This document shows positions 2,959 to 23,178 of a stretch of DNA of 64,000 nt, in pieces. Made by a program: the position numbers and the translations under genes. Source of the stretch: a virus. Taxonomy: Duplodnaviria; Caudoviricetes. The stretch covers positions 1-64,000 of IMG/VR virus record IMGVR_UViG_3300037067_027683, one strand, 5' to 3'. Within the stretch, counting starts at the first letter, position 1. Each line of letters begins with the position of its first letter. The notes under the pieces are model-generated. The model saw only the letters and a program-made list of their open reading frames with translations, had not been told where the DNA came from and ran no database searches.

Positions 2959-5306
2959 GATAAATCTTCTGGTTTAGGTCCGGTCTTCTTAACTAGAATC
3001 TTAGTAGGGAATGCATCTCTCATTTCTTCTCGGTGTGAGATTACTAGAATAGTTCTCTGTTGATTTGAGTCTACAAATTCTTTGAATAATAAATTTACAA
3101 ATTCTTGCACACTACCGTCAAGCCTACCGTCAACTTCGTCAAACACCATGACGTTGCATTGTTGGTCATGTATTGACACATATAAGTCATGTTGCGCGAA
3201 CATGATTGCTAAGTCAATTTTTCTTCTTTCTCCGCCAGACCATAATTCATAAGGCCACAAAGAACATTTAATCTGTAAAAATGAATTAAATTCAATAGGA
3301 AAATTGCATCCCATTGCATTTAAATAATATCTAATTCTTTCATTGAAATATGGTATCATTTTGGTGAGAGTGTGGGCTTTGATTTTTCGTCTGTCCGAAT
3401 ATGCTGAACGAATATAGTCAAAATGTTTTAATAGAATATTATATTGTTCAACCCTTTTTTGAGCTATCAGTCTCTTATTCTTGACTTCTTCTAATTCTGT
3501 GTTTAGACCATCGATGATTTTAGTATATGGATTAACTTCGTTTTCTATTTCTACAATGCTATCGCGAATATTTTCTTTAATTTGTTGTCGTTGTTGTTGT
3601 AGATCGCCAATTGATGACTCATGTATTTCTATTTGTTTCTGCTTCGCGTCATATTGTTTTTTGGTAAGTTGAGCTTCTGACATAGTAATGGCTGGTTTAG
3701 TAGCGTGCGTATGTTCTTTCTTTATTATTAATTTCTTACTCTTTGATGTTAGCTCTTGACGTTGTTCAATTATTTCTTGGTCTAACTCTTTAATCTTATC
3801 TTTCCTGTTTTGTTCCTCGGTCATTATTATGTTGATTTTAGAAAGAAGTTCTTGTTTCCTATTAGCTAGTTTTCCTAACGATTCGGTGTTTTGTCTTCGT
3901 ATTTTCTCAGATAGTTCAGCTTCGTCTACGGTAACTTCAGGTTCGATTCTTTTTGCTAATAACCCATCTCTCATATTAATGCATTGTGACAATTCACTTT
4001 GTTTTGATGCGACGTTGGTTTTTAATACGTTTAGTTTTTCTTGTAATGGATTTTCTAATGAATGGACATGCTCCCCCTGGATCGGTTGCTTACATGTGGG
4101 GCATATAGTTCCTTTTTGTTTTTCTAGATGTTCTATCTCATTTGTGATTTGTTCCGTGTTTGATTTTAATCTTATTAATTCATTGTTGACTTCTATAATT
4201 TCGTCTCGCAAAGTTGTTATATTAGTGTCTATCTCTTCTATGATTGCCCATGTTTTCCGTATATTGTCTAGGTTATATGGTATAATTTCGTTCAATCGTT
4301 TGGTGGTTTCTTTGATTTGTATTTCGACTGAATCAATTTCTGCGTGTGTCTCTTCCTGTCCATTGATTTGTGATTCAAGTATTGTCTTTTTAGTTTCTAA
4401 CCCAGTAATTTCTTTTTCCGTCGATTGTAAGTTTTCGGCTTCTTGATTAATGGTGTCAATTCGTTGTTGATATTCATCCCAATCTTTTTCTAGTTTGACT
4501 AAATCATAAGTTCTAATTTCGGATAATTCTTTTCTTATGATGGTGATTAATTCCTGTGTCGATTTAATCTTCGTCTCAAATTGTTTGTCAATCAACAATA
4601 TATCATCATGATATTTAGTAATTCTATTTTTTCTTGTTTTTTCAAAATTCGATTGTTCATCGTTGTTGCTTTCAATTGTTTTACTTAATCGCAATACTTC
4701 TTGCTCGTAGGAAGCCGTCTCGGTCACATATTTGGTCTGATCTAACTCTACTGTTTGACATTTCTCCTTCGCAACTTCTGCATAAAAGTCAAATTTGGTT
4801 AATCCCAATAATCGTTCTAGCATTTTCTTTCTTTTAGTGTCTGGTAATTCAAGAAATGGTTTACCAAACTGCGCAAAAAACACGCTTGCTGAAAATATTT
4901 CATAATCTAACCCAAATAACTTATTGAGATGTTGTTGTGCATTTTGATTTGTAGAGTCAGAAACGTCAGTCCCATTTGGGTGGTGAATGAATAGGTCATT
5001 GTGTCCATTTACTCCTCTTGTTCTAGTTATAGTATATCCTTCGATAGTCTCAATTTTAACAACACAATTACAACCTGTGAAATGATTTATAACATTGTCG
5101 GCAGGTTTGTCCTTACTTGGTAATCTACCAAATAATACCCAGGTTATTGCGTCAGCAATCGAACTTTTGCCCGCCCCACAGGAAAGGTTGGTCCCCTCGA
5201 TTAAGCCCATGATAAAGACTGGACCTAGGCCATATAAATTGACCACTGTGTCATAATCACCATATGATCTGAAATTTCTTATTGTGAGTGTTTTGAGATT
5301 AAGCAT
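2937..5306 (-). CDS. SbcC/Rad50/T4 gp46-like recombination ATPase
   Basis: IRNFRSY, Walker A GAGKSS, long coiled coil with CPTC zinc hook, signature WSGGE, Walker B VFDE, VISH. Confidence 0.95.
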   Translation of the reverse strand: MLNLKTLTIRNFRSYGDYDTVVNLYGLGPVFIMGLIEGTNLSCGAGKSSIADAITWVLFGRLPSKDKPADNVINHFTGCNCVVKIETIEGYTITRTRGVNGHNDLFIHHPNGTDVSDSTNQNAQQHLNKLFGLDYEIFSASVFFAQFGKPFLELPDTKRKKMLERLLGLTKFDFYAEVAKEKCQTVELDQTKYVTETASYEQEVLRLSKTIESNNDEQSNFEKTRKNRITKYHDDILLIDKQFETKIKSTQELITIIRKELSEIRTYDLVKLEKDWDEYQQRIDTINQEAENLQSTEKEITGLETKKTILESQINGQEETHAEIDSVEIQIKETTKRLNEIIPYNLDNIRKTWAIIEEIDTNITTLRDEIIEVNNELIRLKSNTEQITNEIEHLEKQKGTICPTCKQPIQGEHVHSLENPLQEKLNVLKTNVASKQSELSQCINMRDGLLAKRIEPEVTVDEAELSEKIRRQNTESLGKLANRKQELLSKINIIMTEEQNRKDKIKELDQEIIEQRQELTSKSKKLIIKKEHTHATKPAITMSEAQLTKKQYDAKQKQIEIHESSIGDLQQQRQQIKENIRDSIVEIENEVNPYTKIIDGLNTELEEVKNKRLIAQKRVEQYNILLKHFDYIRSAYSDRRKIKAHTLTKMIPYFNERIRYYLNAMGCNFPIEFNSFLQIKCSLWPYELWSGGERRKIDLAIMFAQHDLYVSIHDQQCNVMVFDEVDGRLDGSVQEFVNLLFKEFVDSNQQRTILVISHREEMRDAFPTKILVKKTGPKPEDLSYVEEVR

Positions 5307-10253: not shown

Positions 10254-11399
10254 TTACCAGTATCCTCTGACACATTTTTGTGATTTACCAACCCATTTGA
10301 TGTTAAGTATACAACCACATCCATCAATTTTAGAGTCTCGCAAAATGTTTTCAGTTCTCAAAGCACCACAAGTGTAATATTTATCATTAATCTTTCTAAA
10401 TAACCTAGCACCAATATGATCTGCCGCTGAACATTTCATACATATTCCTTTCCTTTCTAAATATTTCAGATCATCAACTCTTGGTTCTGATATGAATTTG
10501 ATGACATCAGATATTGATCCATTTAAATCTTTAAGTTGTTTCCAAATTTCTGGGAGACAGCCGCAACTTGATACATTCTTTGGGGCGTGTGGATCAATCT
10601 CATGATATTGAGATTCATAAATACCAGTATCTAAATATTTTTTAAGTTTATTCTCACAATCCACTAAATCCTTGCATATAGCATATTTGTTTTGGCCATG
10701 ATATGGTCTAATATCAAAATCATATGCTATTAAGAACATAGGTATTCCTACGCTATGCATAACATGTGACATACCACTTGATACTCCAACGAATGCATCA
10801 CAAGTTGACGCAATTTCAATACATTTCTTTAAAGATAGATTTCTACCTAGCCTAATGAAATCATAATCTTTAAATTTTTCATAAAAATCTACTAATTCCC
10901 ATCTAGGTGGTCTTGGCACGATGTTAGAATCGAATTGGTAACATATTCGTTTATATCGTCCTGGTGTCCATTCAATCTTAGTTGGTGGATTTTTAATTGA
11001 CCAATATGCATTAGTAATTTTAGCGCCCTTTTGGTCTGTAAATTCTATCTTGCCTTTAGAATTAATCAATTCTAGTATTTCATCAAATCTTGGATTCCGT
11101 GTGACTATTGGTATTTCTCCTGTATCTTCATTTTGTTGTAATAACCAACACATAAATTGCCAGCTATCTCCTAATTTATCATATGCTACTTGGTCAGAAT
11201 AAATGTTATTCTGAATTTCTGGTTGTTGAACGCCTAAATCACCCCAGTTCTTACCATGCGGGCATATAAAATTGTCTTCAGTTATGTCTTCGAATACTTT
11301 TCTCAACTGCGTACGCCATACTTTCCCACCGTCTAGATTTCTACAGAGGGTGCAGTGGGCATTTGACTTGCAATGTATTGATGTAAAGAATTTCATCAT
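10254..11399 (-). CDS. GT9 (heptosyltransferase)-like domain flanked by Cys-rich metal-binding domains
   Basis: Central FVGVSSGMSHVMHSVGIPMF resembles the GT9 motif. N-terminal HC..AHCTLC..CPHG; C-terminal CMKC..CG..GCGC..KC. Confidence 0.6.
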   Translation of the reverse strand: MMKFFTSIHCKSNAHCTLCRNLDGGKVWRTQLRKVFEDITEDNFICPHGKNWGDLGVQQPEIQNNIYSDQVAYDKLGDSWQFMCWLLQQNEDTGEIPIVTRNPRFDEILELINSKGKIEFTDQKGAKITNAYWSIKNPPTKIEWTPGRYKRICYQFDSNIVPRPPRWELVDFYEKFKDYDFIRLGRNLSLKKCIEIASTCDAFVGVSSGMSHVMHSVGIPMFLIAYDFDIRPYHGQNKYAICKDLVDCENKLKKYLDTGIYESQYHEIDPHAPKNVSSCGCLPEIWKQLKDLNGSISDVIKFISEPRVDDLKYLERKGICMKCSAADHIGARLFRKINDKYYTCGALRTENILRDSKIDGCGCILNIKWVGKSQKCVRGYW

Positions 11400-11404
11400 A
11401 TCTC

Positions 11405-13777
11405 CTAACTCAGTACCACTGTGTAGTTACCACAGAACTGTAGACCGTAATTCTGGTATGCTGCTATTACGATTGACCCAACTGGGTGTCCTCCTACTCC
11501 TGTACATGTTATGGCGCCTGATCCAGTGGCTGTAGCGTATCCATTATATAAACTTATGCTTATAGTCCATACTCCACCTGAGCATGTTAATGTATATCCG
11601 CCGCCACCATAATCAGTCCATGTGCAACCAGAACTATGCATAAATGCAGCCCCAGATCTCGCAAAGAACATTGGGGCATTAGTGCCACAAGGACCATATG
11701 CACTAACTGCAACGGTGATTATGCTATTACCTGTACATTGCGCGGCACAATCTGGGCAAGCAGGAGGTGGAGTACTGGAACTGGAGCTAGAGCTTGAACT
11801 AGAACTTGAACCATTTGAACTTGAACCATTTGAACTTGAACTAGAACTACATGGAATCCATTCAAATTCCCAAATAGATCCACAACAGGTATTGCCGTAT
11901 GGATCTCCTTTGAATGTACCACTAACCACAAATTGTGTATGTGCTGGAACAGTCTGACGATTATTGGCGCCATCATCAAATTCCAAGCCTGTGCCATCGC
12001 AAGCAGGATTGTAGCATCCAAAACCTTCGTCATTAGTCTCTGGGCGTAGTTTGCTAGTGTAATTGACACACACGTCGTAATCAGAATAATTCTTGATAGT
12101 CAATACGCCACTGATTGAATTAAACTCTTCATTAAAGCACACACACGTCTCTTTAGATTCTCCAATTAATCTATTATCATTTGTTATCTCAATTTCCCAG
12201 AGTAATGGACTTGTAATAGTTGTTTCATCGCAACCACATGGTCCAGCAGGACTGCTGGACGATGAATGTTGAGAAGATTGCGAACCTGCCGAACCATTTG
12301 AAGATTGTGACGACGATGACGATGAGGAAGATCCCCCTGATGATGATCCAGAAGATGAACTACTTGAAGACGAACTACCTGAATTGGAACCAGACGATGA
12401 AGATGATGCGGAAGAAGACCCACTATTACTTGAGTCAGCGAATGCAGGTTGCGGTGGGACACGCACACGTGGCAAACCTTCTACCGCACAAGCATCGCCC
12501 AAATTCCCACACATGAAGAAATTATCTCGGCAACACATTTCTGGGGGAGATGGGTCAGTGATTATGGTGAATGGGAAAGGACCAGTAATACAATCTGAAT
12601 TCTGCACATTGATTTGTGGTAGATTATTAAACCATTGGAATTTAGATAATTCGTAACGCCTCCGGTCATCACACTTCTTCATCGGAGTCCAGGCTGGTAA
12701 TTTTAATTCTGGGTATTTAACTTCGTCATTAAAAGTATAAAAACCAATATTTTTACAGTTTTTAGTTGTTTGTTCAACTGCCAATGTGTATTGACTGGAT
12801 GGGAAAGTTCCTTCACCAATTGCTAAGCTTGCAGTACAAATTTCATTACTAACTTGAGACTGTATGAATAATATGTTCTCTTTCGAGTTAGTCCTAAGAG
12901 AAGAAACATATTTTTCAAAACGAACCAATGAGTCATCTGGTATTTCGACATTTAATTCAAAAAGTGGGTCTCCGTCAGCCCCAGTTTTCCCTTGTGGGCC
13001 TCGTTGCCTAACTTTATAACGCCAAACATTTGTTTCTAGAGTAAAAACACCTTTTTTCAAAACAATTATGCCAGATACCATATTAGTTGCTGAATCATAA
13101 TGAATATGTGTGTTCTTTTCATCTACTTCATATTCGTCTGTGTCAATAAATTCCAAATAATCAGTGCCAGCTACTGAAATTAATATTTCTATTATCTGTG
13201 TGTCTTGATTAAAAATCCGTAAAGACAATGGCTCAGCTAATGGTGTTGATACTCTGTTATTGAATTCGAATGTCGTAGTCGTCAGTTTAGTTGGTTGATA
13301 GAATTTTTCTTTGGCGGCAGGTATCCCATTTCTACCTTTATCCCCTACCTCACCACGTGGCCCAATCGTACCAATACATGGTGTTCTAGTTAACAATGAT
13401 GAAATATGTGCTCTATTGACTTCTAATCTAATAAGCTTTTGTCCATTCTCTAACGTTTCTGGTTTAAAACGAATAGTGCCATCGTTTGAATTAAGATAAT
13501 AGAAATACGGATATATGCCAGACCCAACATAAATCTTATTTGGACCGAAATCTACACCCAAATCAATTGTGGTCTGTAGTTCTTTGAGTTTGGCGTAAAC
13601 ACTAGGTGGTATTAATCCGTCATTTATTTCGTTAACTAGTGGTGGATTTGGTATTATGCCAATTTGAATCCAAGAATTTTCTTCAGAGTTATATCGGTAG
13701 ATATTGCCATATTCATCTGCAACTTCTTCGCCGTCAGTTGGGTTAGATGGTAATTTTGGGGTAATATCGATGCTCAT
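11405..13777 (-). CDS. Putative virion fibre/surface protein with collagen-like triplets, poly-Ser linkers and Cys-rich modules
   Basis: N-terminal LPSNPTDG..GNIYRY..W (fibre-like), GPRGEVGDKGRNG and GPQGKTGADG triplets, two Ser-rich tracts, Cys-rich C-terminal domains. Confidence 0.65.
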   Translation of the reverse strand: MSIDITPKLPSNPTDGEEVADEYGNIYRYNSEENSWIQIGIIPNPPLVNEINDGLIPPSVYAKLKELQTTIDLGVDFGPNKIYVGSGIYPYFYYLNSNDGTIRFKPETLENGQKLIRLEVNRAHISSLLTRTPCIGTIGPRGEVGDKGRNGIPAAKEKFYQPTKLTTTTFEFNNRVSTPLAEPLSLRIFNQDTQIIEILISVAGTDYLEFIDTDEYEVDEKNTHIHYDSATNMVSGIIVLKKGVFTLETNVWRYKVRQRGPQGKTGADGDPLFELNVEIPDDSLVRFEKYVSSLRTNSKENILFIQSQVSNEICTASLAIGEGTFPSSQYTLAVEQTTKNCKNIGFYTFNDEVKYPELKLPAWTPMKKCDDRRRYELSKFQWFNNLPQINVQNSDCITGPFPFTIITDPSPPEMCCRDNFFMCGNLGDACAVEGLPRVRVPPQPAFADSSNSGSSSASSSSSGSNSGSSSSSSSSSGSSSGGSSSSSSSSQSSNGSAGSQSSQHSSSSSPAGPCGCDETTITSPLLWEIEITNDNRLIGESKETCVCFNEEFNSISGVLTIKNYSDYDVCVNYTSKLRPETNDEGFGCYNPACDGTGLEFDDGANNRQTVPAHTQFVVSGTFKGDPYGNTCCGSIWEFEWIPCSSSSSSNGSSSNGSSSSSSSSSSSSTPPPACPDCAAQCTGNSIITVAVSAYGPCGTNAPMFFARSGAAFMHSSGCTWTDYGGGGYTLTCSGGVWTISISLYNGYATATGSGAITCTGVGGHPVGSIVIAAYQNYGLQFCGNYTVVLS
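11802..11841. repeat. 15-bp tandem repeat encoding the SSSNG linker
   Basis: gaacttgaaccattt occurs twice plus a partial third copy. Confidence 0.8.
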
Positions 13778-13833
13778 ATGTTATCTTTAATCCCAAATTA
13801 TTTATTTTAGATTTCAATATAGAGAGTCTATTT

Positions 13834-14260
13834 AATCCGCATCAAATCCAAGTGATTGACCAGAGAGTAAAATAGATGACTCTGGAATTACTGGATTTTT
13901 ATTGTTTGAACATAAAGGATAGTTACAAGGAGGGGATGACCCCAACTCATTTTAGAGTTATTACTATCCAAGTTCAAACAAGCGGATTTCAGGAGACCAA
14001 ACAAAAACGAATCTTGTTCGTTTTGTCCGACCCAGTAGAGGCCCATCCGCTCCAAGAAACCCTTGAGTCTTGGAGAAGACAACAAGATCGCTCCTGTTGT
14101 CCATCCCAGCTGTGCTGGTTGATGCTTGTGCCCTGGTTCTAGACTCTGTAGATTCACCAGGTGGCCTCTGTCCTACTGGGATTTTACGACATCGTATGAT
14201 GAAGGTTGGTATTATAGGCCGAGTTAGTTATAGTCCAACCTACCAGAACGAATGGGCTTA
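13834..14260. ncRNA. Candidate structured non-coding RNA or structured DNA element in a divergent intergenic region
   Basis: More than 10 nested complementary stems (listed under findings), including a minus-strand 10-bp stem with a GCGA (GNRA) tetraloop. No convincing ORF. Confidence 0.6.
14211..14238 (-). promoter_or_regulatory. Possible sigma70-like promoter pointing into the structured element
   Basis: The minus strand reads TTGGAC-16 nt-TATAAT. Confidence 0.35.
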
Positions 14261-14383
14261 TCACAAACTTCTTACAACCAACATGAGTTTGTGATCACCT
14301 ATTTAATGACTACCACGACCACCGTGGCGTTGATTATATACGTTAAAAACAACTCGATATTTAAATATCTTAAGAGGACGACC

Positions 14384-14935
14384 ATGGACAAAATCAAAAA
14401 ACCAGAATTTGTGCAAATACTCAGATCTAAAAAACCAACTAAAGATGAACGTAAAAAGCTAATTAAGAATTTTAAGAGAAATGGTGTAGAATATGAGGCA
14501 GATGTTAAAGACCAATACAAGAGCATTAAAAAGAGAATTGCTTATTTTTCAAAAGAACATAAGATGATTGGAGAATGGATATATGTTGGTTATAATTGGT
14601 GGTGTAGAAAAATAACTGACTATGAATTTGCTAAAATATATGCTCAGAACAATACGACTTTGGAAGAGGAACCATGGGATGATAAATTTCACAAATTTGA
14701 AAATCCTCCAACCATAGTGTTAAGAGATGTTTCTGGTAATAAGGAAAAGGGATTCCTAGTAGGGTATAATGAGTTTGAATTATTAATTGAATGGATAGAC
14801 CCAATCACTAAAGAGAGAAAACATGCGATTCCGATTAGGGATGTCGAAAATATTTCTTTTGAATGGTTGGAACATTATAAGAAGTATCGGAAAATAATCG
14901 CAAATATATTAAAATCACGTAAGAAGGGGTCTTGA
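14384..14935 (+). CDS. Basic protein with C-terminal Sm/Hfq-like domain
   Basis: IVLRDVSGNKEKGFLVGYNEFELLI aligns without gaps to Hfq Sm1 ([25 protein letters not shown]) and is followed by KHAIP. The start at 14384 has a GAGG RBS. Confidence 0.5.
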   Translation: MDKIKKPEFVQILRSKKPTKDERKKLIKNFKRNGVEYEADVKDQYKSIKKRIAYFSKEHKMIGEWIYVGYNWWCRKITDYEFAKIYAQNNTTLEEEPWDDKFHKFENPPTIVLRDVSGNKEKGFLVGYNEFELLIEWIDPITKERKHAIPIRDVENISFEWLEHYKKYRKIIANILKSRKKGS

Positions 14936-14936
14936 G

Positions 14937-15179
14937 ATGTTTGGTTGGTTTAAGAGGTTATTTAAAGATAAATCAGAGATAGTGATCACAATTAATGTAC
15001 CCCCGATTCAGGTGTTTGTACATGAAGATCAGAACGATAGACCCGTTACACATAATAAACAAGAAAGACATACCACCGTTGATCCAACCGGTGTATGTAA
15101 TGAAGAAAATTTCGACCAACTTTCAGATAAATTCAAGAAAACCAAAACCTCAGAAACTCAATTTGGAATTGGTACATAA
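14937..15179 (+). CDS. Small protein with N-terminal amphipathic helix
   Basis: MFGWFKRLFK N-terminus; lies between the Sm-like and actin-like genes. Confidence 0.6.
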   Translation: MFGWFKRLFKDKSEIVITINVPPIQVFVHEDQNDRPVTHNKQERHTTVDPTGVCNEENFDQLSDKFKKTKTSETQFGIGT

Positions 15180-15213
15180 CACTGGAACATTCCTGAGAAG
15201 GAGTAACATACCC

Positions 15214-16260
15214 ATGAGATTGATCGGATTAGATCTTGGGACTAAGCATATTGTATTGTCATGGAGAGATCCTCAAAATGCGGTCAAGACTAGTTATGAG
15301 ATCAATGGATATGTGATTTTTCCTAGAGCAGATTCTTTTACTGAATCATTGTTGAAGCAGAATGGTGTTCCATTTGTTACAAGGGAGGTTGGTAATAGGA
15401 AAGAGTTAATAGCAATTGGTCAGAAAGCTGAGAAGTTGGCTTACTCTTTTAATCAGACTTTACGTAGACCCATGGCTGAGGGTGGTGTTTCAAAATTTGA
15501 TGATGATGCTCAGGAAATTATGGCTATTATTATTAAATCTATGATTGGAAAGTTAGCAGAGGATGCTTTAATTTATTATTGTACCACTGCTGCTCCTATT
15601 AATTCCGATAATTTGAATGTCGAATTTCATAAGAGGATTGTTAAATTAATAATTGAGAGTTATGCTAATGAGAAAACTAAGGTTCGTGCATTCCATATTA
15701 ATGAGGCTAGATGTTTGGTTTTAGAGGAGAAAGGTGAGGCTATTGGTATTAGTTGGGGTGCTGGAACTATTACTGTACATGCTGGTGTTTTTGGTATGCC
15801 GATTTTTGAATTTTCGATTGTGGGTGCTGGTGATTGGGTTGATGTTGAAGCTGCGAAGCGTTTTGGTTATGACCCATCTCACCCTGATCATAGTACTATC
15901 GAAACTCCTACTTCTATTTGTCGTAGGAAAGAGACTATAAGTTTATCCAAAATACCTGACGATAAGGTAGGACAGGCAATTTATTTGATGTATGAAATTC
16001 TTATTGAGAAAGTTGTTGATCAATTGGTGATCGGATTTAGGGAAAATCGTGATAAATTCAGATTTGATAAACCAATACCTGTTATTAATGCTGGTGGTAC
16101 TTGTATGCCGGATGGATTTATGGATTTGTTTAAAAAGAAGATGAATGAAGTTAAAGATGATATGTCAGTGCCAATTGGTGATATTACTAAGTTAGACAAT
16201 ACTCTGTTTGCTGTGTCTCATGGTTGTCTGAAGGCTGCTGAATTACATAAAGATGAATAA
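15214..16260 (+). CDS. Actin-fold ATPase (MreB/ParM/MamK/volactin superfamily)
   Basis: Phosphate-1 IGLDLGT, RRPMAEG, connect-1 INEAR, phosphate-2 GISWGAGT, GAGDWVD, adenosine NAGGT. The start at 15214 has an AGGAG RBS. Confidence 0.85.
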   Translation: MRLIGLDLGTKHIVLSWRDPQNAVKTSYEINGYVIFPRADSFTESLLKQNGVPFVTREVGNRKELIAIGQKAEKLAYSFNQTLRRPMAEGGVSKFDDDAQEIMAIIIKSMIGKLAEDALIYYCTTAAPINSDNLNVEFHKRIVKLIIESYANEKTKVRAFHINEARCLVLEEKGEAIGISWGAGTITVHAGVFGMPIFEFSIVGAGDWVDVEAAKRFGYDPSHPDHSTIETPTSICRRKETISLSKIPDDKVGQAIYLMYEILIEKVVDQLVIGFRENRDKFRFDKPIPVINAGGTCMPDGFMDLFKKKMNEVKDDMSVPIGDITKLDNTLFAVSHGCLKAAELHKDE

Positions 16261-16281
16261 TTATTTTGTTAGGGGAATACT

Positions 16282-16635
16282 GTGAAGTGGAATGGTTTTG
16301 CTGCGGTGTGTATATGCGGTAAATTGTGCACCAGTAAACCTGGTTTAACGATGCATCATAAACACTGTAAGGAAGCTCAAGCATCATTTAAGAAGAATGG
16401 ATCTGGTATTCAAAAGACCAATATTATTGAATCTGAGTTAGTATATACACCAATGGTTAAGGAATTAGTTGATTTAGTTAGAGATTTATCTATTGATGCT
16501 CATTATGCAATAACCGAGAAGAATAAATCTGCTGGTCGGAGAGCACGAGTTGGTCTTAATCGTCTAAAACATAAAATCACACCTCTTCGGAAGGTCATTT
16601 TACAGAAGATTAAGATTAAACGTGATAGTATTTAA
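16282..16635 (+). CDS. C2H2-like zinc finger fused to an Hc1 histone-H1-like domain
   Basis: CICGKLCTSKPGLTMHHKHC followed by NKSAGRRARVGL...LRK, resembling the Hc1 family motif NKxAxxRxR. Confidence 0.6.
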   Translation: MKWNGFAAVCICGKLCTSKPGLTMHHKHCKEAQASFKKNGSGIQKTNIIESELVYTPMVKELVDLVRDLSIDAHYAITEKNKSAGRRARVGLNRLKHKITPLRKVILQKIKIKRDSI

Positions 16636-16641
16636 AGGCTT

Positions 16642-18051
16642 GTGGAAGAGTCTCAACTGATACAACCAATTTCGGCCCAGGAGGCTGAAAATCTTTTTCC
16701 TGGTCCAAGCGATTTCGTACATTTACATAATCATACATTATTTAGTATTCTTGATGGTGTTGCTTCTCCAGAGCAATATTTCAAAGATGCTGCTGCACGT
16801 AAATCACCAGCTTTTGCTATTACGGAACATGGTGTTCTTAATAGTATTCCAGATGGTTATTTAGCATCTAAGGAGTTTGGTGTTAAATTTATTGCTGGTG
16901 TCGAGTTTTATTATTGTGATTATGATGATTTACGTAAAGATTTACAAAATAAGGGTATAACGCCTGCTATGTTGAAGGAGCAAAATCAGATCCATATTTC
17001 TTCAAGGGTTTATAGGAATCGCCATTTGACCATATTGTCTAAGGATATGGGTGGTTATGAGAATCTTCTTTCTTTAAACAAATATGCTTTTGAGAACAAT
17101 TTCTATTATAAACCTAGGACTTCTATTGAGCAATTGGCTAAATTTAAGGATGGTTTAATTGTTTTATCTGGATGCTTGAATGGTCCGGTTAGTCATGAAT
17201 TGCGTGCTGATAATTTGACAACTAAAGATGGATGGAGAGGTGCTGTTGAATATGTTCGTGACTTCAAGAATTTATTTGGGGATAATTTTTATGTGGAACT
17301 ACAAATGCCTGGGGTCGCTAATGATAAAGAAGTGTTCACTAAGTTGGTGACTTTGGCTGATCATTTTAAGGTTAAGACTGTTATTACAAATGATTGTCAT
17401 TATACTGATCGTAAAGATTTCTTAATTCAAAAAGTCATGATGGCTATTGATCAGAAGACCACTATTGATGATCCTGAATTATTTCATGTTAATTCGGATG
17501 ATCAATATATGAAGACTAGACATGAATTGCGTGCTACTTTTATTAGACGTGGTTATATATCTGATGTTCCATTGAGTGTTTTTGAACAATCTTGTAATAA
17601 TACTCTTGAAGTTGCTGATAAGTGCAAAGCTTTTAAACCTAATCTAGAACCGAAATTACCAAAGATTGATGACGCTGAAAATAAGCTATGTGCTTTAGCT
17701 CTTAACGGTTTGAAAAATAGGGGTCTGGATAAAGATTCTAAAAGATATTTTATTGATGGGCGTGAGGTTACATATTATGATCAGATGATCATTGAGTTAG
17801 ACAGGATTATTGAAAAAGGTTTTGCTTCATATTTTTTAATAACTCTTGATTTGGTAAGCAGGGCTAAACGTGAGGGTTGGATGATGGGTCCTGCTCGTGG
17901 TTCTGCTGGTGGGTCTTTAATTTGTTTTCTGATTGGTATTCAGGAACTTGATCCTATTAAATGGGGGTTGTCTTTTAATCGCTTCTTATCTCCTGCGCGA
18001 GGTGGTTTTATGCTTAATATTGGGATGCCTAAGAAGGAGAAGCCTAAATGA
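16642..18051 (+). CDS. dnaE: DNA polymerase III alpha subunit, N-terminal part (PHP domain plus start of palm)
   Basis: FVHLHNHTLFSILDG, ITEHG, GFASYFLI, GPARGSAGGSL, DPIKWGLSFNRFL. It ends before the catalytic PDxDxD. Confidence 0.92.
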   Translation: MEESQLIQPISAQEAENLFPGPSDFVHLHNHTLFSILDGVASPEQYFKDAAARKSPAFAITEHGVLNSIPDGYLASKEFGVKFIAGVEFYYCDYDDLRKDLQNKGITPAMLKEQNQIHISSRVYRNRHLTILSKDMGGYENLLSLNKYAFENNFYYKPRTSIEQLAKFKDGLIVLSGCLNGPVSHELRADNLTTKDGWRGAVEYVRDFKNLFGDNFYVELQMPGVANDKEVFTKLVTLADHFKVKTVITNDCHYTDRKDFLIQKVMMAIDQKTTIDDPELFHVNSDDQYMKTRHELRATFIRRGYISDVPLSVFEQSCNNTLEVADKCKAFKPNLEPKLPKIDDAENKLCALALNGLKNRGLDKDSKRYFIDGREVTYYDQMIIELDRIIEKGFASYFLITLDLVSRAKREGWMMGPARGSAGGSLICFLIGIQELDPIKWGLSFNRFLSPARGGFMLNIGMPKKEKPK

Positions 18052-18980
18052 GTCAAAATGGCTTAATTAACGCAGACGACACAATGGCAGTCATAGCAAC
18101 TAGTGAATCTATTCCGATTATTACCAATAGGATTGAATTGATTTTGGCAGATACTATTGGTGGGGCCTTTACTATTACTTTACCAGCAGTACCAATAGTT
18201 GGTCGTTCGATCCGCATTATTGATCAGAATTCGAATTTTAATATCAATAATTTAATGGTTGATGCTACTCCAAATAAATTTATGAATAACGATTCGATCC
18301 TGATATGTGATGTGAGTGGTATGGATATAAAACTAGTTTATGCTGATGACGTAGGATGGGTTATTTCTGATATTAACACCAACACTAACACGAACACGAA
18401 CACGAACGATGGTGTTATTAATTCGATGCGGAGGTGGCTTAGTGGCATTTGGAATAATAGAAACGTCGCGATTGGTTACGATCAAGCAGTTAGGGCTGAT
18501 TCAAGCGTTGCTATTGGCTATAACAATGTTGCTATTGGTTTCGGGGCCAATGCTTCTGGGGGTGGTGGAGGTGGAGGGGCAAATAGTGGGGTTGATAACG
18601 CTCCTGGTGGGGGCGGGGGTGGTTTAATTAATATTCCGCTTGTGCGGACGACTTTTGATGATGTGAGAATTACTGGTCCTAGGGGTATGACTGGTCCTAT
18701 TGGTATTTATGGTCCTATCGGGCGCACTGGACCTATGAGGATTTATGGTTCTTCAATGTCTTCTTCAATGTCTTCGGAATTTTTAAGAACATCAAGATCA
18801 TTTAATAAGATAGAAGAAATTTATTGGAGAATACAGAATTTGAGTGAAGAAGATTTAAAGATTATGATGCCGCAATTACAATTAGAACTTAGTAATGTGT
18901 TGCGAGAAGAAATGAAACCAGCGGTACCTAAAGATGTTGTTGAACTTGGTGATCGAAATTTGGAGTTGGGCAATGAATAA
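18048..18980 (+). CDS. Mosaic protein: fibre-like ITLPA domain, VAIG (YadA-head-like) repeats, Gly-rich and collagen-like segments
   Basis: FTITLPA, (NT)n, three VAIG, GGGGG, GPRGMTGPIGIYGPIGRTGP, C-terminal ELGDRNLEL. Confidence 0.55.
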   Translation: MSQNGLINADDTMAVIATSESIPIITNRIELILADTIGGAFTITLPAVPIVGRSIRIIDQNSNFNINNLMVDATPNKFMNNDSILICDVSGMDIKLVYADDVGWVISDINTNTNTNTNTNDGVINSMRRWLSGIWNNRNVAIGYDQAVRADSSVAIGYNNVAIGFGANASGGGGGGGANSGVDNAPGGGGGGLINIPLVRTTFDDVRITGPRGMTGPIGIYGPIGRTGPMRIYGSSMSSSMSSEFLRTSRSFNKIEEIYWRIQNLSEEDLKIMMPQLQLELSNVLREEMKPAVPKDVVELGDRNLELGNE

Positions 18981-19405: not shown

Positions 19406-19825
19406 GTGATTAAGATTTACGTTGATGGTAGAGGTTTTGGTAAAGCTGGTGTTGGATTTAGTATTTTCTTGTGTTGTGGGAAACATGAATGGAAGCGCTC
19501 TTTTAACGGTGGTAATATTACTTCTAATCAAGCAGAGATGAAAGCGGTTGAATATGCCATTAAAAGCATTAAACCCGAATTTGCTAATGAAGATATCATG
19601 ATTAAAAGCAGTGGTAGGTATGTCCAGATGATGTTAGAGCGTAATCAGGGTAAATGGGTTAAGGAACCTCGTACTAATATTGAGTTAACTAAGGAGATAA
19701 GGTCGTTAGTTGAACGTTTTGGTAAATTTTCTATTGAGTCATGTGATGATAATATCATGCAAGATTTGAAAAAGCTTACTGAGGCCGCAGTTAAAAAAGG
19801 TCGTGAGGTTTTTGAGAAACGATGA
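19406..19825 (+). CDS. RNase HI-like protein (degenerate active site)
   Basis: IYVDG...G.G, TSNQAEMKA, W....NIEL. The expected TDSxY is replaced by SSGRY. Confidence 0.7.
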   Translation: MIKIYVDGRGFGKAGVGFSIFLCCGKHEWKRSFNGGNITSNQAEMKAVEYAIKSIKPEFANEDIMIKSSGRYVQMMLERNQGKWVKEPRTNIELTKEIRSLVERFGKFSIESCDDNIMQDLKKLTEAAVKKGREVFEKR

Positions 19826-20700: not shown

Positions 20701-23178
20701 ATGGAGTGGTTAGAATTAAAAGAATATGCTGTGAATCTTCTAAAAGAACGCAATCTCATTGATGAATATGAGAAGCGTCTAGATAAAGAATTATATGAAA
20801 TAGAGAAACAGGGTGCTAACGGACTATGGGTCGATTATTTTAATAATAAGGAAACATGGTTGGAGAATCCGAATGGTTTAGTCATACCATGGTTGTTGGG
20901 CATGACCCAAATAGACCCTGTTGCTTCTAATATTCCCCATAAAGAAACGTATCAAACAGATTTTCCCGACATCGATTTGGATTTCTTGCCCCTGGCTCGT
21001 GAAACTATTAAGAACTATGCTATAGAGAAATATAAATATGTTTGTAGTGTCGGTAATTGGGTGACTTTTAAACCGAAGTCTGCTCTCCAGGACGTGGCTC
21101 GTGCGCTCGGTATTGACGCTAGGACCATCCTTGATGTGACCTCAAATTTACCAGATGAGTTTGATGATCTTGATCTTGAGGACCATGAATTAATTTGGAA
21201 GGATCTAAATAATCCAGATGAGAAGAAGAGGGAAGAGGCTGGTCGTGAAATAGCAAGATATAAGACATTTTACGACTTCAAGGATTCAAATCCAGAAACT
21301 GTTGATATTGCTTATCGTCTTGTCGGTAAACTTCGTACACAGAGCATGCATGCTGGTGGTGTTATTATTGCTGATAGACCTATTGAGAATTTAGTACCTT
21401 TGTCATTATTGAAAAAGGGTTGGGCTAGTCAATGGACAGAAGGCAAACGAACGCAGTTGTCTAAATTTGGGTTAGTTAAGTTTGATATATTGGGAGTTAA
21501 GACTATCTATTACATCTGGCAGGCTGGTAATCTTATTAAAAAGAATTTTGGAATTACTATTGATTGGTCTAGCATGGACCCTTTGGCAATCCCAATGCGC
21601 TTGGGTTATGAAATTTTGAAAGATGGCACTAAGAATGATATAATATTTGATGATGCAACGCTTAAAATGACTAATGAACTTAGGACTGATTCTGCTTTTC
21701 AAATTGAAAGTCAGATTCAAAAAGGCATCATTCGTGATGGTAAGATTAGGTCATTTTGGGATTTGGTTGTTTATAATGCACTCGGTCGTCCAGGTCCAAT
21801 GGATTGTATTCCTGAATACATCAAGCAACGTGATGATCCTTCTGAGGGGTGGAAACAGAATGAAGATTCTCGTGTCATAAAGATTCTGCCAGACACTTAT
21901 GGTGTTATCTGTTATCAAGAGCAATTGCAAGCTATGTGGCAATCGTTGGCTGGTTTTACTGTTCCTGAAGCTGAAGATGCTAGAAAGATTATTTCTAAAA
22001 AGTGGGTTGATAAGTTACCCAAAGTAGAAGCAAAATGGAAAGCAGGTGCGTCTAAAACGATTGGTGAGGACGCCACTAATGAATGGTGGAATAAGATGGT
22101 GTCATTTGGTCGTTACGCTTTTAATAAAAGTCATGCTGTAGCTTATTCTGTGGTTACTTTTAGATGTTTGTGGTTAAAGTCACATTATCCACAACAGTGG
22201 TGGGCGGCTGTTATGTCTGAATGTCACCCAGATAAGTTGCCTGGATATATGACTGCTGCCAAGGTTGATGGTGTGCAATTTGGTGCTTTAGATGTTGACA
22301 ATCTTACACATGATTTTGACGTTGACCTTAATAATAAAGTAGTTCCTGGTATAGCTGCGATTAAGGGGATTGGAGAGAAGGCGTCTAGGAGATTTACAGA
22401 TATAAAGGGTCCATTTAAATCAATTGAGGATGTTGTCGAAAAATGTGGTAAACACAAAAAAGTTTTTGAACGTTTAATTAAACTAAATGCCTTTAGTAAG
22501 TTCTATTCAAACAGGAGAGGATTGTGGATATGGTACCAATGGGCGTACACAAATAACCCCGAAATTAAAAAGTTTGTTCGTGACGTATTCAAGTGGTCTG
22601 AAGAAGCTATTATGATGGAACGAGATAGACAGCGACAGAATTTTCTTCGTGAACATCCAAAACGTAAGGTCCCAAAGAAGATTGAATCTTGGTTACCGAA
22701 AATCAATCCGCCAAGAGATGAATTCTTAAAAATAATACCAGATTATACTCCATTTGAATCATTACAAATAGAAAAAGAGTTACTTGGTTATTATTGGAGT
22801 TCGCCTATGGATATTTATATGCACGATTCGACTAAAACCATAACAAAGGCCAAAAATGATGGTAAGAATGGCATAATTGATGTTGTGATCCAGAAAGTTA
22901 CTAGTAGACGTTCGAAGTTAGGCAATGAGTATTATGTTCTCAGGGTGTCGGATGGTGTTCAAACCGCCGACGTTATGATATGGTTGAATATTTATAACTC
23001 AGTTGATAATAGAATATTCCAGGAAGCTGTTGGCGTCAGGCTTTTTGTTGAGTATAATGTTGAGCACAACAGTTTTAAGATAATGAACGGGACAACTCCG
23101 ATACCACTACATAGACGTGGAGCGTCTAATGCCGAAGAAGTAGCCCAAATTGAAATGGAGGATTACCCATTATGGTAG
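20701..23178 (+). CDS. dnaE: DNA polymerase III alpha subunit, catalytic C-terminal part
   Basis: FPDIDLDF, HAGGVII, GLVKFDILG, RPGPM, YQEQ, YAFNKSHAVAYS, IKGIG (HhH), EKELLGYY, OB fold. Confidence 0.92.
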   Translation: MEWLELKEYAVNLLKERNLIDEYEKRLDKELYEIEKQGANGLWVDYFNNKETWLENPNGLVIPWLLGMTQIDPVASNIPHKETYQTDFPDIDLDFLPLARETIKNYAIEKYKYVCSVGNWVTFKPKSALQDVARALGIDARTILDVTSNLPDEFDDLDLEDHELIWKDLNNPDEKKREEAGREIARYKTFYDFKDSNPETVDIAYRLVGKLRTQSMHAGGVIIADRPIENLVPLSLLKKGWASQWTEGKRTQLSKFGLVKFDILGVKTIYYIWQAGNLIKKNFGITIDWSSMDPLAIPMRLGYEILKDGTKNDIIFDDATLKMTNELRTDSAFQIESQIQKGIIRDGKIRSFWDLVVYNALGRPGPMDCIPEYIKQRDDPSEGWKQNEDSRVIKILPDTYGVICYQEQLQAMWQSLAGFTVPEAEDARKIISKKWVDKLPKVEAKWKAGASKTIGEDATNEWWNKMVSFGRYAFNKSHAVAYSVVTFRCLWLKSHYPQQWWAAVMSECHPDKLPGYMTAAKVDGVQFGALDVDNLTHDFDVDLNNKVVPGIAAIKGIGEKASRRFTDIKGPFKSIEDVVEKCGKHKKVFERLIKLNAFSKFYSNRRGLWIWYQWAYTNNPEIKKFVRDVFKWSEEAIMMERDRQRQNFLREHPKRKVPKKIESWLPKINPPRDEFLKIIPDYTPFESLQIEKELLGYYWSSPMDIYMHDSTKTITKAKNDGKNGIIDVVIQKVTSRRSKLGNEYYVLRVSDGVQTADVMIWLNIYNSVDNRIFQEAVGVRLFVEYNVEHNSFKIMNGTTPIPLHRRGASNAEEVAQIEMEDYPLW

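Follow-up and report, generated by a model that had tools for sequence, protein, structure and literature searches.

Phage-built cytoskeletons have been described in the form of the PhuZ tubulin spindle of nucleus-forming jumbo phages (PMC8314001) and of one prophage actin, AlpC. The latter is part of the AlpAC system of Corynebacterium glutamicum prophage CGP3, in which an actin and a DNA-binding adaptor are needed for efficient phage DNA replication (PMC4446434). In Haloferax volcanii, filaments of the actin volactin (VolA, HVO_2015) are dynamic and contact the membrane at their tips, and the adjacent gene encodes a CdpA-like membrane protein, HVO_2016 (PMC10869688, PMC12126565). Short membrane-binding segments are known from the membrane-targeting sequence of Escherichia coli MinD, KGFLKRLFGG (PMC5471200), and from the N-terminal helix of MreB (PMC3163269). 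Here we describe a phage locus encoding a predicted volactin-family actin and, directly upstream of it, a small partner protein, next to the replicative polymerase gene dnaE. It lies in the first 64 kb (64,000 nucleotides (nt); hereafter, the window) of the 102-kb IMG/VR virus record IMGVR_UViG_3300037067_027683. The record is estimated to be 28% complete and is therefore a fragment of a huge-phage genome; the G+C content of the window is approximately 37%. We regard it as somewhat probable that the locus is a huge-phage cytoskeletal cassette, in which membrane-tethered filaments of the volactin family act with the replication module.

Leftward genes of the window end at position 13777 and rightward genes begin at 14384, and the sign of the GC skew flips between them. 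Four genes then follow on the + strand (14384–14935, 14937–15179, 15214–16260 and 16282–16635), separated by gaps of 1, 34 and 21 nt and each preceded by a Shine–Dalgarno site. The next gene (16642–18051, +) encodes the N-terminal part of DnaE, comprising a PHP domain (PF02811, E value of 1.7e-35) and the start of the DNA polymerase III α-subunit (PF07733, E value of 2.7e-24). An earlier inspection of the DNA, made without database searches (the sequence-only reading), had described four tightly packed co-oriented genes followed by dnaE, and had assigned to them a basic protein, a small protein with an amphipathic start (MFGWFKRLF), an actin-like ATPase and a finger fused to an Hc1-like domain. 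All of these descriptions hold, on the evidence given below for each gene.

The gene at 15214–16260 (+) encodes a predicted actin-fold ATPase of 348 amino acids (aa) belonging to the volactin family. It matches the Pfam Volactin profile (PF25216) with an E value of 2e-34 and 120 bits (cut-off of 35 bits) over profile positions 3–321 of 321, and scores 119.6 bits to the same profile in the genome-wide search. The nucleotide-binding residues comprise D7-x-G9-T10 (phosphate 1), G178-ISWGAGT185 (phosphate 2) and A293-GGT296 (adenosine); the motifs LGLDLGT, GISWGAGT and AGGT show little or no variation among 25 homologues. The AlphaFold2 (AF2) model has a predicted local distance difference test (pLDDT) score above 90 in its core and is matched by Foldseek to MreB (Protein Data Bank (PDB) entry 4czj, E value of 2e-14, template modelling (TM) score of 0.65) and MamK (PDB entry 5ljv, TM score of 0.69), as well as to BeeR and eukaryotic actin. 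E values for these four lie between 1e-10 and 1e-14, and ParM ranks lower. A profile of the 25 homologues, compared with solved structures, matched only MamK (E value of 3.5e-4). Relatives of the actin are present in 123 protein-collection clusters and in 213 confirmed IMG/VR stretches, many of them on contigs of 100–408 kb. An identical protein is on record from a 372-kb contig, and two deposited huge-phage genomes, LR756511 and LR745208, encode relatives with 35% and 27% identity, respectively.

The gene order around the actin was compared across 80 IMG/VR loci and 80 metagenome loci, which were found by alignment with the actin and onto which the proteins of the window were mapped. In the close clade (loci L084–L102, with actins 53–72% identical to that of the window), the order is the gene for a 183-aa protein, the partner, the actin, the Hc1 protein and dnaE. 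Homologues of the 183-aa protein occupy the matching position in 12 loci, and the Hc1 gene lies downstream of the actin in 18. In 78 of 162 loci, from clades spanning 36–72% actin identity, the actin is followed by the N-terminal part of dnaE. Across all clades only the pair of partner and actin persists, down to approximately 33% actin identity. The expectation that the neighbours would be syntenic in related genomes was therefore correct for the close clade, but beyond it applies to the pair only.

The partner (14937–15179, +) is a protein of 80 aa that begins with an amphipathic helix (MFGWFKRLF), continues through a β-segment (ITINV..VFV) and a hydrophilic linker, and ends in a tail containing QFG. 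Three-frame translation of the DNA upstream of the actin revealed a conserved small protein in nearly every lineage. The N-terminal helix, with the pattern M[FL][GR][WF][FL][KR]x[LW][FL], is present in clades down to approximately 43% actin identity. A β-segment of VEVxINV..V.V type comes next, joined to the tail by a hydrophilic linker. This tail differs among clades: close-clade partners have P[EQ]VxFGxE, some of those in the clade at 40% actin identity GGFG[ST][KR], and those of the clade at 33–37% WEIPDF..K[IV]xFGKK. A crude motif test places an open reading frame (ORF) with an FG-motif end immediately before the actin in at least 68 of 122 distinct loci, as against 1 control stretch, with examples in all identity bins from approximately 33% upwards.

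The hydrophobic moment of the partner N terminus (first 11 residues) is 0.67 in the window and 0.61–0.84 in seven of ten homologues; the full range over the homologues is 0.28–0.84, compared with 0.45 for the E. coli MinD sequence. The first 10–11 residues of the partners (MFGWFKRLF, MFGFLKGLFG and MGFLSRLFG) share the pattern of the membrane-binding helices of MinD, FtsA and MreB, the last two being closely similar to the MinD sequence, and it is reasonable to read this segment as a putative membrane anchor in the lineage of the window. Unlike those helices, the predicted one belongs not to the filament former but to a small protein of its own, of which it forms the N terminus. The possibility that the FG tail is the ribosome-binding site of the actin gene read as protein was rejected for the close clade, in which the partner stops 11–50 nt before the actin start. 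In the window the partner stop is 35 nt before that start, and the AAGGAG site comes after the stop. Because close-clade partners end before the Shine–Dalgarno site, the FG motif there is a feature of the protein; the binding site may contribute to the terminal GKKE of the tails in the 33–37% clade. In locus L092 (1343–1676) the partner gene seems to be frameshifted, the FG tail being out of frame with the helix and β-segment; either a genuine break or an error of assembly could account for this.

Downstream of the actin, the gene at 16282–16635 (+) encodes a predicted basic DNA-binding protein of 117 aa (isoelectric point (pI) of 10.1), composed of a C2HC zinc finger and an Hc1 (histone H1-like) domain. 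The Hc1 domain (residues 59–108) matches PF07432 with an E value of 1e-7 and 32.1 bits (cut-off of 23.5 bits). The finger, CxCGKxC-x8-H-x3-C, is kept in the homologues and has classical zinc-finger spacing, with the last His replaced by Cys.

Taken together, these proteins suggest a mechanism whose conserved core would be the partner, encoded directly upstream of the actin, and the actin itself. The MinD-like helix of the partner would reside at the membrane while its FG tail docked on the actin, giving membrane-tethered and probably dynamic filaments; the dynamics are proposed by analogy with volactin, and the docking by analogy with ParR–ParM and AlpA–AlpC (PMC4446434). The Hc1/zinc-finger protein is, by its position, a candidate link between the filaments and phage DNA. 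The pair heads the replication module, before the split DnaE, and the Hc1 and 183-aa genes are lineage-specific additions to it. The place of the cassette before dnaE suggests a role in organising replication, and its task is likely to be the positioning or organisation of replicating phage DNA, as for AlpAC or ParMRC.

Each of the described systems shares part of this arrangement. As with volactin, the actin belongs to PF25216 and an adjacent gene encodes a membrane-associated partner, here a predicted one. In contrast to volactin, it is phage-encoded, its partner, of 80 aa, has an amphipathic helix where HVO_2016 has four transmembrane segments, and the cassette sits with DnaE, the Hc1 protein and a structured element. 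In AlpAC a phage-borne actin is co-transcribed with a small partner, and a DNA-binding component ties the system to replication of the phage DNA; the locus shares the pairing and has a candidate DNA-binding component. However, AlpC belongs to another actin family, and AlpA binds to a consensus site within the promoter of its own gene, with no such repeats present here; the candidate DNA binder here is the Hc1/zinc-finger protein downstream of the actin, and the anchor-like partner is separate from it. The ParMRC system of plasmid R1 similarly combines an actin with a small adaptor, the C-terminal peptide of which is thought to engage the actin, and has the same order of cis region, actin and DNA-binding protein. 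It differs in its ParR-type ribbon-helix-helix protein and parC iterons, both absent from this locus, and in lacking the predicted membrane-targeting helix; the phage actin is nearest to MamK by sequence profile and to MreB and MamK by fold, with ParM lower. Like the gene for PhuZ, that for the actin is a cytoskeletal polymer gene of a very large phage and may organise replication in space, although the polymer is an actin rather than a tubulin; no tubulin gene was found in the 102-kb record.

In the reviews and papers searched, there was no mention of a volactin-type phage actin with this partner, nor of the full set of cassette genes. Specific to this locus are the replication context, the MinD-like putative anchor on a partner of soluble size, the Hc1 protein, the 183-aa protein and a new structured element. 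Hundreds of contigs from very large phages encode an actin of the volactin type together with a dedicated small partner. Moreover, the occurrence in one row of a putative anchor peptide, an actin, a predicted Hc1 DNA-coating protein and a replicase makes it possible to approach the question of whether huge phages that do not form a nucleus organise replication by means of their own actin.

An additional reading frame overlaps the partner gene. The frame of the actin is open upstream of its core Met at 14995–15213 (+), which could be a 73-aa N-terminal extension or a by-product. In all close-clade loci this frame is open for 70–100 codons upstream of the core Met and contains the motif lDP.H.i.KKDlP.LlqP. 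Synonymous shuffles of the partner gene keep the actin frame open to that extent in 0.015–0.31 of trials per locus, which combine by Fisher's method over seven lineages to approximately 5e-4. The stretch is modelled by AF2 at pLDDT 34–69, and there is no Shine–Dalgarno site ahead of the ATG at 14995, whereas the core actin Met has a strong one. Dual coding, with a long actin isoform of 421 aa, is possible: it is suggested statistically, with support from neither the model nor the ribosome-binding site.

The first gene of the row (14384–14935, +) encodes a clade-specific basic protein of 183 aa (labelled sm183; pI of 9.5), comprising a basic N-terminal segment, a β-domain with the motif WxYVGxxWWCR...YEFAR, and a C-terminal small β-barrel with a helix. 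Eleven homologues with 20–34% identity retain the strongly conserved motifs W.YVG..WWCR, YEFAR and GLWD..RH. A profile of these 11 found only 66 clusters, all of them clade-specific, among 1.84 billion proteins; the members are of similar size or cut to the N-terminal 120 residues. The AF2 model has a pLDDT of 93.6, yet there was no Pfam match for the protein at an E value of 0.1 or below and no Foldseek match for the model at 0.001 or below. Weak Foldseek matches were to the tandem SH3-like domain of KIN17, the KOW domain of NusG/Spt5 and RimP (PDB entry 1ib8, probability of 0.93), and SmE and SmG aligned with TM scores of 0.33–0.39 and a root mean square deviation of approximately 4.5 Å. The small β-barrel of residues 109–183 gave a best VIA-align Z-score of 4.8, to PH, SH3 and Tudor barrels. 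PHROGs returned nothing useful and ESM Atlas no usable match. Of the single-protein searches, a scan of viral contigs was empty and a word-based search with the 183-aa protein retrieved only the protein itself. The sequence-only reading had assigned an Sm/Hfq-like domain to this protein. That identity finds no support, as there is no LSM or Hfq profile match and the barrel fits Sm no better than SH3, Tudor or PH folds. The protein is better described as a basic multi-barrel protein, which possibly binds nucleic acid.

Between the leftward genes and the row lies a conserved covarying structured element of approximately 430 nt (13834–14260). The intergenic DNA at 13834–14270 folds at −144.8 kcal/mol, with z-scores against shuffled sequences of −6.7 for the + strand and −4.7 for the − strand, in agreement with the earlier description of a densely base-paired intergenic element of about 430 bp. 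A variable left domain (13834–13988) opens with AUCCGC, which is often repeated, and is closed by an AATCCGC/GCGGATT stem just before the core. It is followed by a hairpin at 14008–14028 with the loop AUCUUGU. In the core (14030–14203), a long closing helix surrounds a junction of four hairpins, with the loops GUCGCC and UAUAGA..AAGAUUC and the junction sequence AUCCGC. Next come the single-stranded GGAUUUUAC and a covarying hairpin. The 3′ domain (14204–14260) carries GUUAGUU..GGUCCAACC.

The right-hand 250 nt of the element (approximately 14000–14256) recur in L084, L088–L091, L092, L094 and L099, as detected by blastn and nhmmer. A covariance model of the core (R1; 176 positions, 42 pairs, spanning 14030–14203) recovers seven distinct members (window, L084, L088–L091, L092, L094 and L099) at E values of 1e-36 to 1e-54. 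It also finds a GC-rich divergent member in L004 (E value of 5e-9). A shorter version was recovered from the record of L010 (2.5e-7), and weaker matches came from L009 (1e-4) and L006 (5e-3), with the inner helix AGGCC/GGCCU, the internal loop CUCUGUC and the tail GGAUUUU preserved throughout. Among the eight best members, 88.8% of cells are paired, compared with 32–45% when the partners are slid; 34 of the 42 pairs have changes on both sides, and none of 500 shuffles reaches the observed values. The alignment was fitted to R1, which favours structure, but the margin is large. No Rfam match was found at an E value of 1 or below in 13000–17000 and none at the gathering score in the whole window, and no tRNA or tmRNA was found. 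The structure is genuine, conserved and covarying, and represents a new family; its form is either a non-coding RNA or single-stranded DNA. Pairs of GU type account for 12 and those of AC type for 7 of 321 cells, and the reverse-complement alignment folds slightly better (−44.1 compared with −37.5); neither the balance of these pairs nor the alignment folding decides the strand. Because wobble pairs are so few, a single-stranded DNA structure, for example at an origin, is a possible form of the element.

The element is single-copy in the record. In about ten lineages it lies 0.2–4.5 kb upstream of the actin, on the strand of the actin in seven and on the other strand in four. Unrelated genes can separate it from the cassette: those in L099 encode a 2H phosphoesterase and a topoisomerase IB, and in L084 a 338-aa ORF intervenes. 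It was not found in L085 and L096 with search filters off; both loci keep the 183-aa protein, L096 also the Hc1 gene, and their upstream DNA has little or no fold of its own as a structured analogue (z-scores of −2.3 and 0.0). Conservation of the element, as anticipated by the sequence-only reading, is therefore clear, but its linkage to the cassette is loose in distance, orientation and occurrence. It is kept in the same neighbourhood, and nothing shows that it is a member of the actin machinery.

Several of these results weigh against a membrane-tethered cassette dedicated to replication. The Hc1 and 183-aa genes are limited to the close clade plus L004 and L005. Partners of the 33–37% clade lack the amphipathic N terminus, so that membrane tethering, as plausible as the MinD-like pattern makes the proposed anchor in the lineage of the window, is not universal. 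Furthermore, 13700–14400 contains no parC-like iterons or centromere-like repeats, only two short two-copy repeats (11 and 9 nt). The main rival explanation is that the actin pair serves virion assembly or manipulation of the host envelope, with the proximity of dnaE being an accident of gene order in this lineage. Only the partner–actin pair is universal, and roughly half of the loci lack the replication neighbours; in 48 loci the actin has a Ser-rich fibre-like protein and glycosyltransferases beside it; and Haloferax volactin acts in cell-shape change, not in DNA segregation (PMC10869688). We nevertheless consider such a role unlikely. The placement of dnaE directly downstream in 78 of the 162 loci extends over clades of 36–72% actin identity, close-clade loci have the gene for a predicted DNA-coating Hc1 protein between those for the actin and DnaE, and the sole studied phage actin, AlpC, supports replication (PMC4446434). 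Membrane-tethered filaments acting with the replication module remain our preferred explanation of the pair.

The remaining alternatives turn on the element. It could serve a replication origin, either as DNA or as a primer transcript, in which case it would be a hairpin set at the border of two gene blocks, independent of the actin. It does lie at the divergence of leftward structural and glycosylation genes from rightward replication genes, near dnaE and where the GC skew flips; its pairing is nearly all Watson–Crick, both strands fold about equally well, and either orientation occurs. However, the skew change in phages also tracks the switch in transcription and is therefore no marker of an origin, neither iterons nor an AT-rich unwinding element were seen, and in L099 and L004 the element is kilobases from the replication genes. 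The five-way junction, the conserved loops and the 34 covarying pairs are, moreover, typical of a functional RNA, and we give the origin interpretation rather little credence. The sequence-only reading had proposed a cis element or adaptor consisting of RNA and an Sm ring; in such a model the element, as an RNA bound by a ring of the 183-aa ‘Sm-like’ protein, would load phage DNA or cargo on the filaments. Several observations fit this: the element occurs only in actin-bearing lineages and always within 4.5 kb upstream of the actin, the seven strongest members and L004 all have the 183-aa gene, the conserved single-stranded U-rich tract GGAUUUUAC between two helices resembles Hfq and Sm binding sites, and the protein is basic, with a C-terminal barrel weakly like SmE, SmG and the C-domain of RimP. 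Against it, SH3, Tudor and PH barrels score equally well or better and no Sm/Hfq family match exists; the element is inverted in four lineages, with other genes between it and the cassette; L085 and L096 retain the protein and have no detected element, L010, L009 and L006 have the element and no detected homologue of the protein, and the co-occurrence is confounded by shared descent. With a protein that is not demonstrably Sm-like and an element only loosely linked, the RNA-and-Sm-ring proposal was not sustained, and we consider it very improbable. A related idea, that the element RNA and the 183-aa barrel protein form a particle serving as cargo, nucleator or regulator of tethered actin filaments, seems to us more improbable still; if true, it would provide an RNA component of a prokaryotic-virus cytoskeleton, for which there is no known counterpart. 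Irrespective of any such role, the 430-nt element represents a separate new family of structured nucleic acid with strong covariation.

The surroundings of the element yielded further observations. An exact 9-nt direct repeat, CTATTTAAT, brackets it at 13828–13836 and 14299–14307, the sole copies in the 64 kb, and in L099 a similar CACCTATTA is found on both sides of the element. The repeat could be a promoter pair or an insertion scar. A promoter reading of CTATTTAAT/TATTTAAAT was rejected, as the motif is not enriched in the window. A DNA pattern scan of IMG/VR for the element gave four chance matches only. Identity with a Y RNA was also discarded, the 102-kb record containing no TROVE/Ro60 gene. 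A TROVE/Ro60 protein is encoded in two complete related huge-phage genomes of 341 and 395 kb with terminal repeats (L173 and L174, the records of L006 and L009). Its gene lies there 120–170 kb away from the element and distant from the actin locus, next to tRNA arrays, and both genomes have their own YrlA-like RNAs, scoring below threshold, at that site. An R1 match beside Ro60 proved to be a terminator hairpin only.

On the left of the element, the − strand at 10254–13777 encodes a Ser/Cys-rich protein of 790 aa (11405–13777) and a GT9-like glycosyltransferase, homologues of which adjoin the actin in the 48 loci mentioned above, on either side and in either orientation. On the right, DnaE is split: its C-terminal part (20701–23178, +, from the ORF list) is separated from the N-terminal part by a 2.6-kb gap holding four genes, which encode a tail-fibre-like protein (18048–18980, with PHROG tail matches), a 156-aa ORF, RNase H (19406–19825) and a 288-aa ORF. 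The two parts give separate tblastn matches in relatives, and their occurrence as separate genes, often with RNase H between them, recurs in many related loci. In L099, the two genes between the element and the cassette encode an Acb1/2H-phosphoesterase-like protein of the anti-CBASS family (3448–4011, −; E value of 6e-8) and a eukaryotic-type topoisomerase IB core (4233–5066, +; E value of 1e-12).

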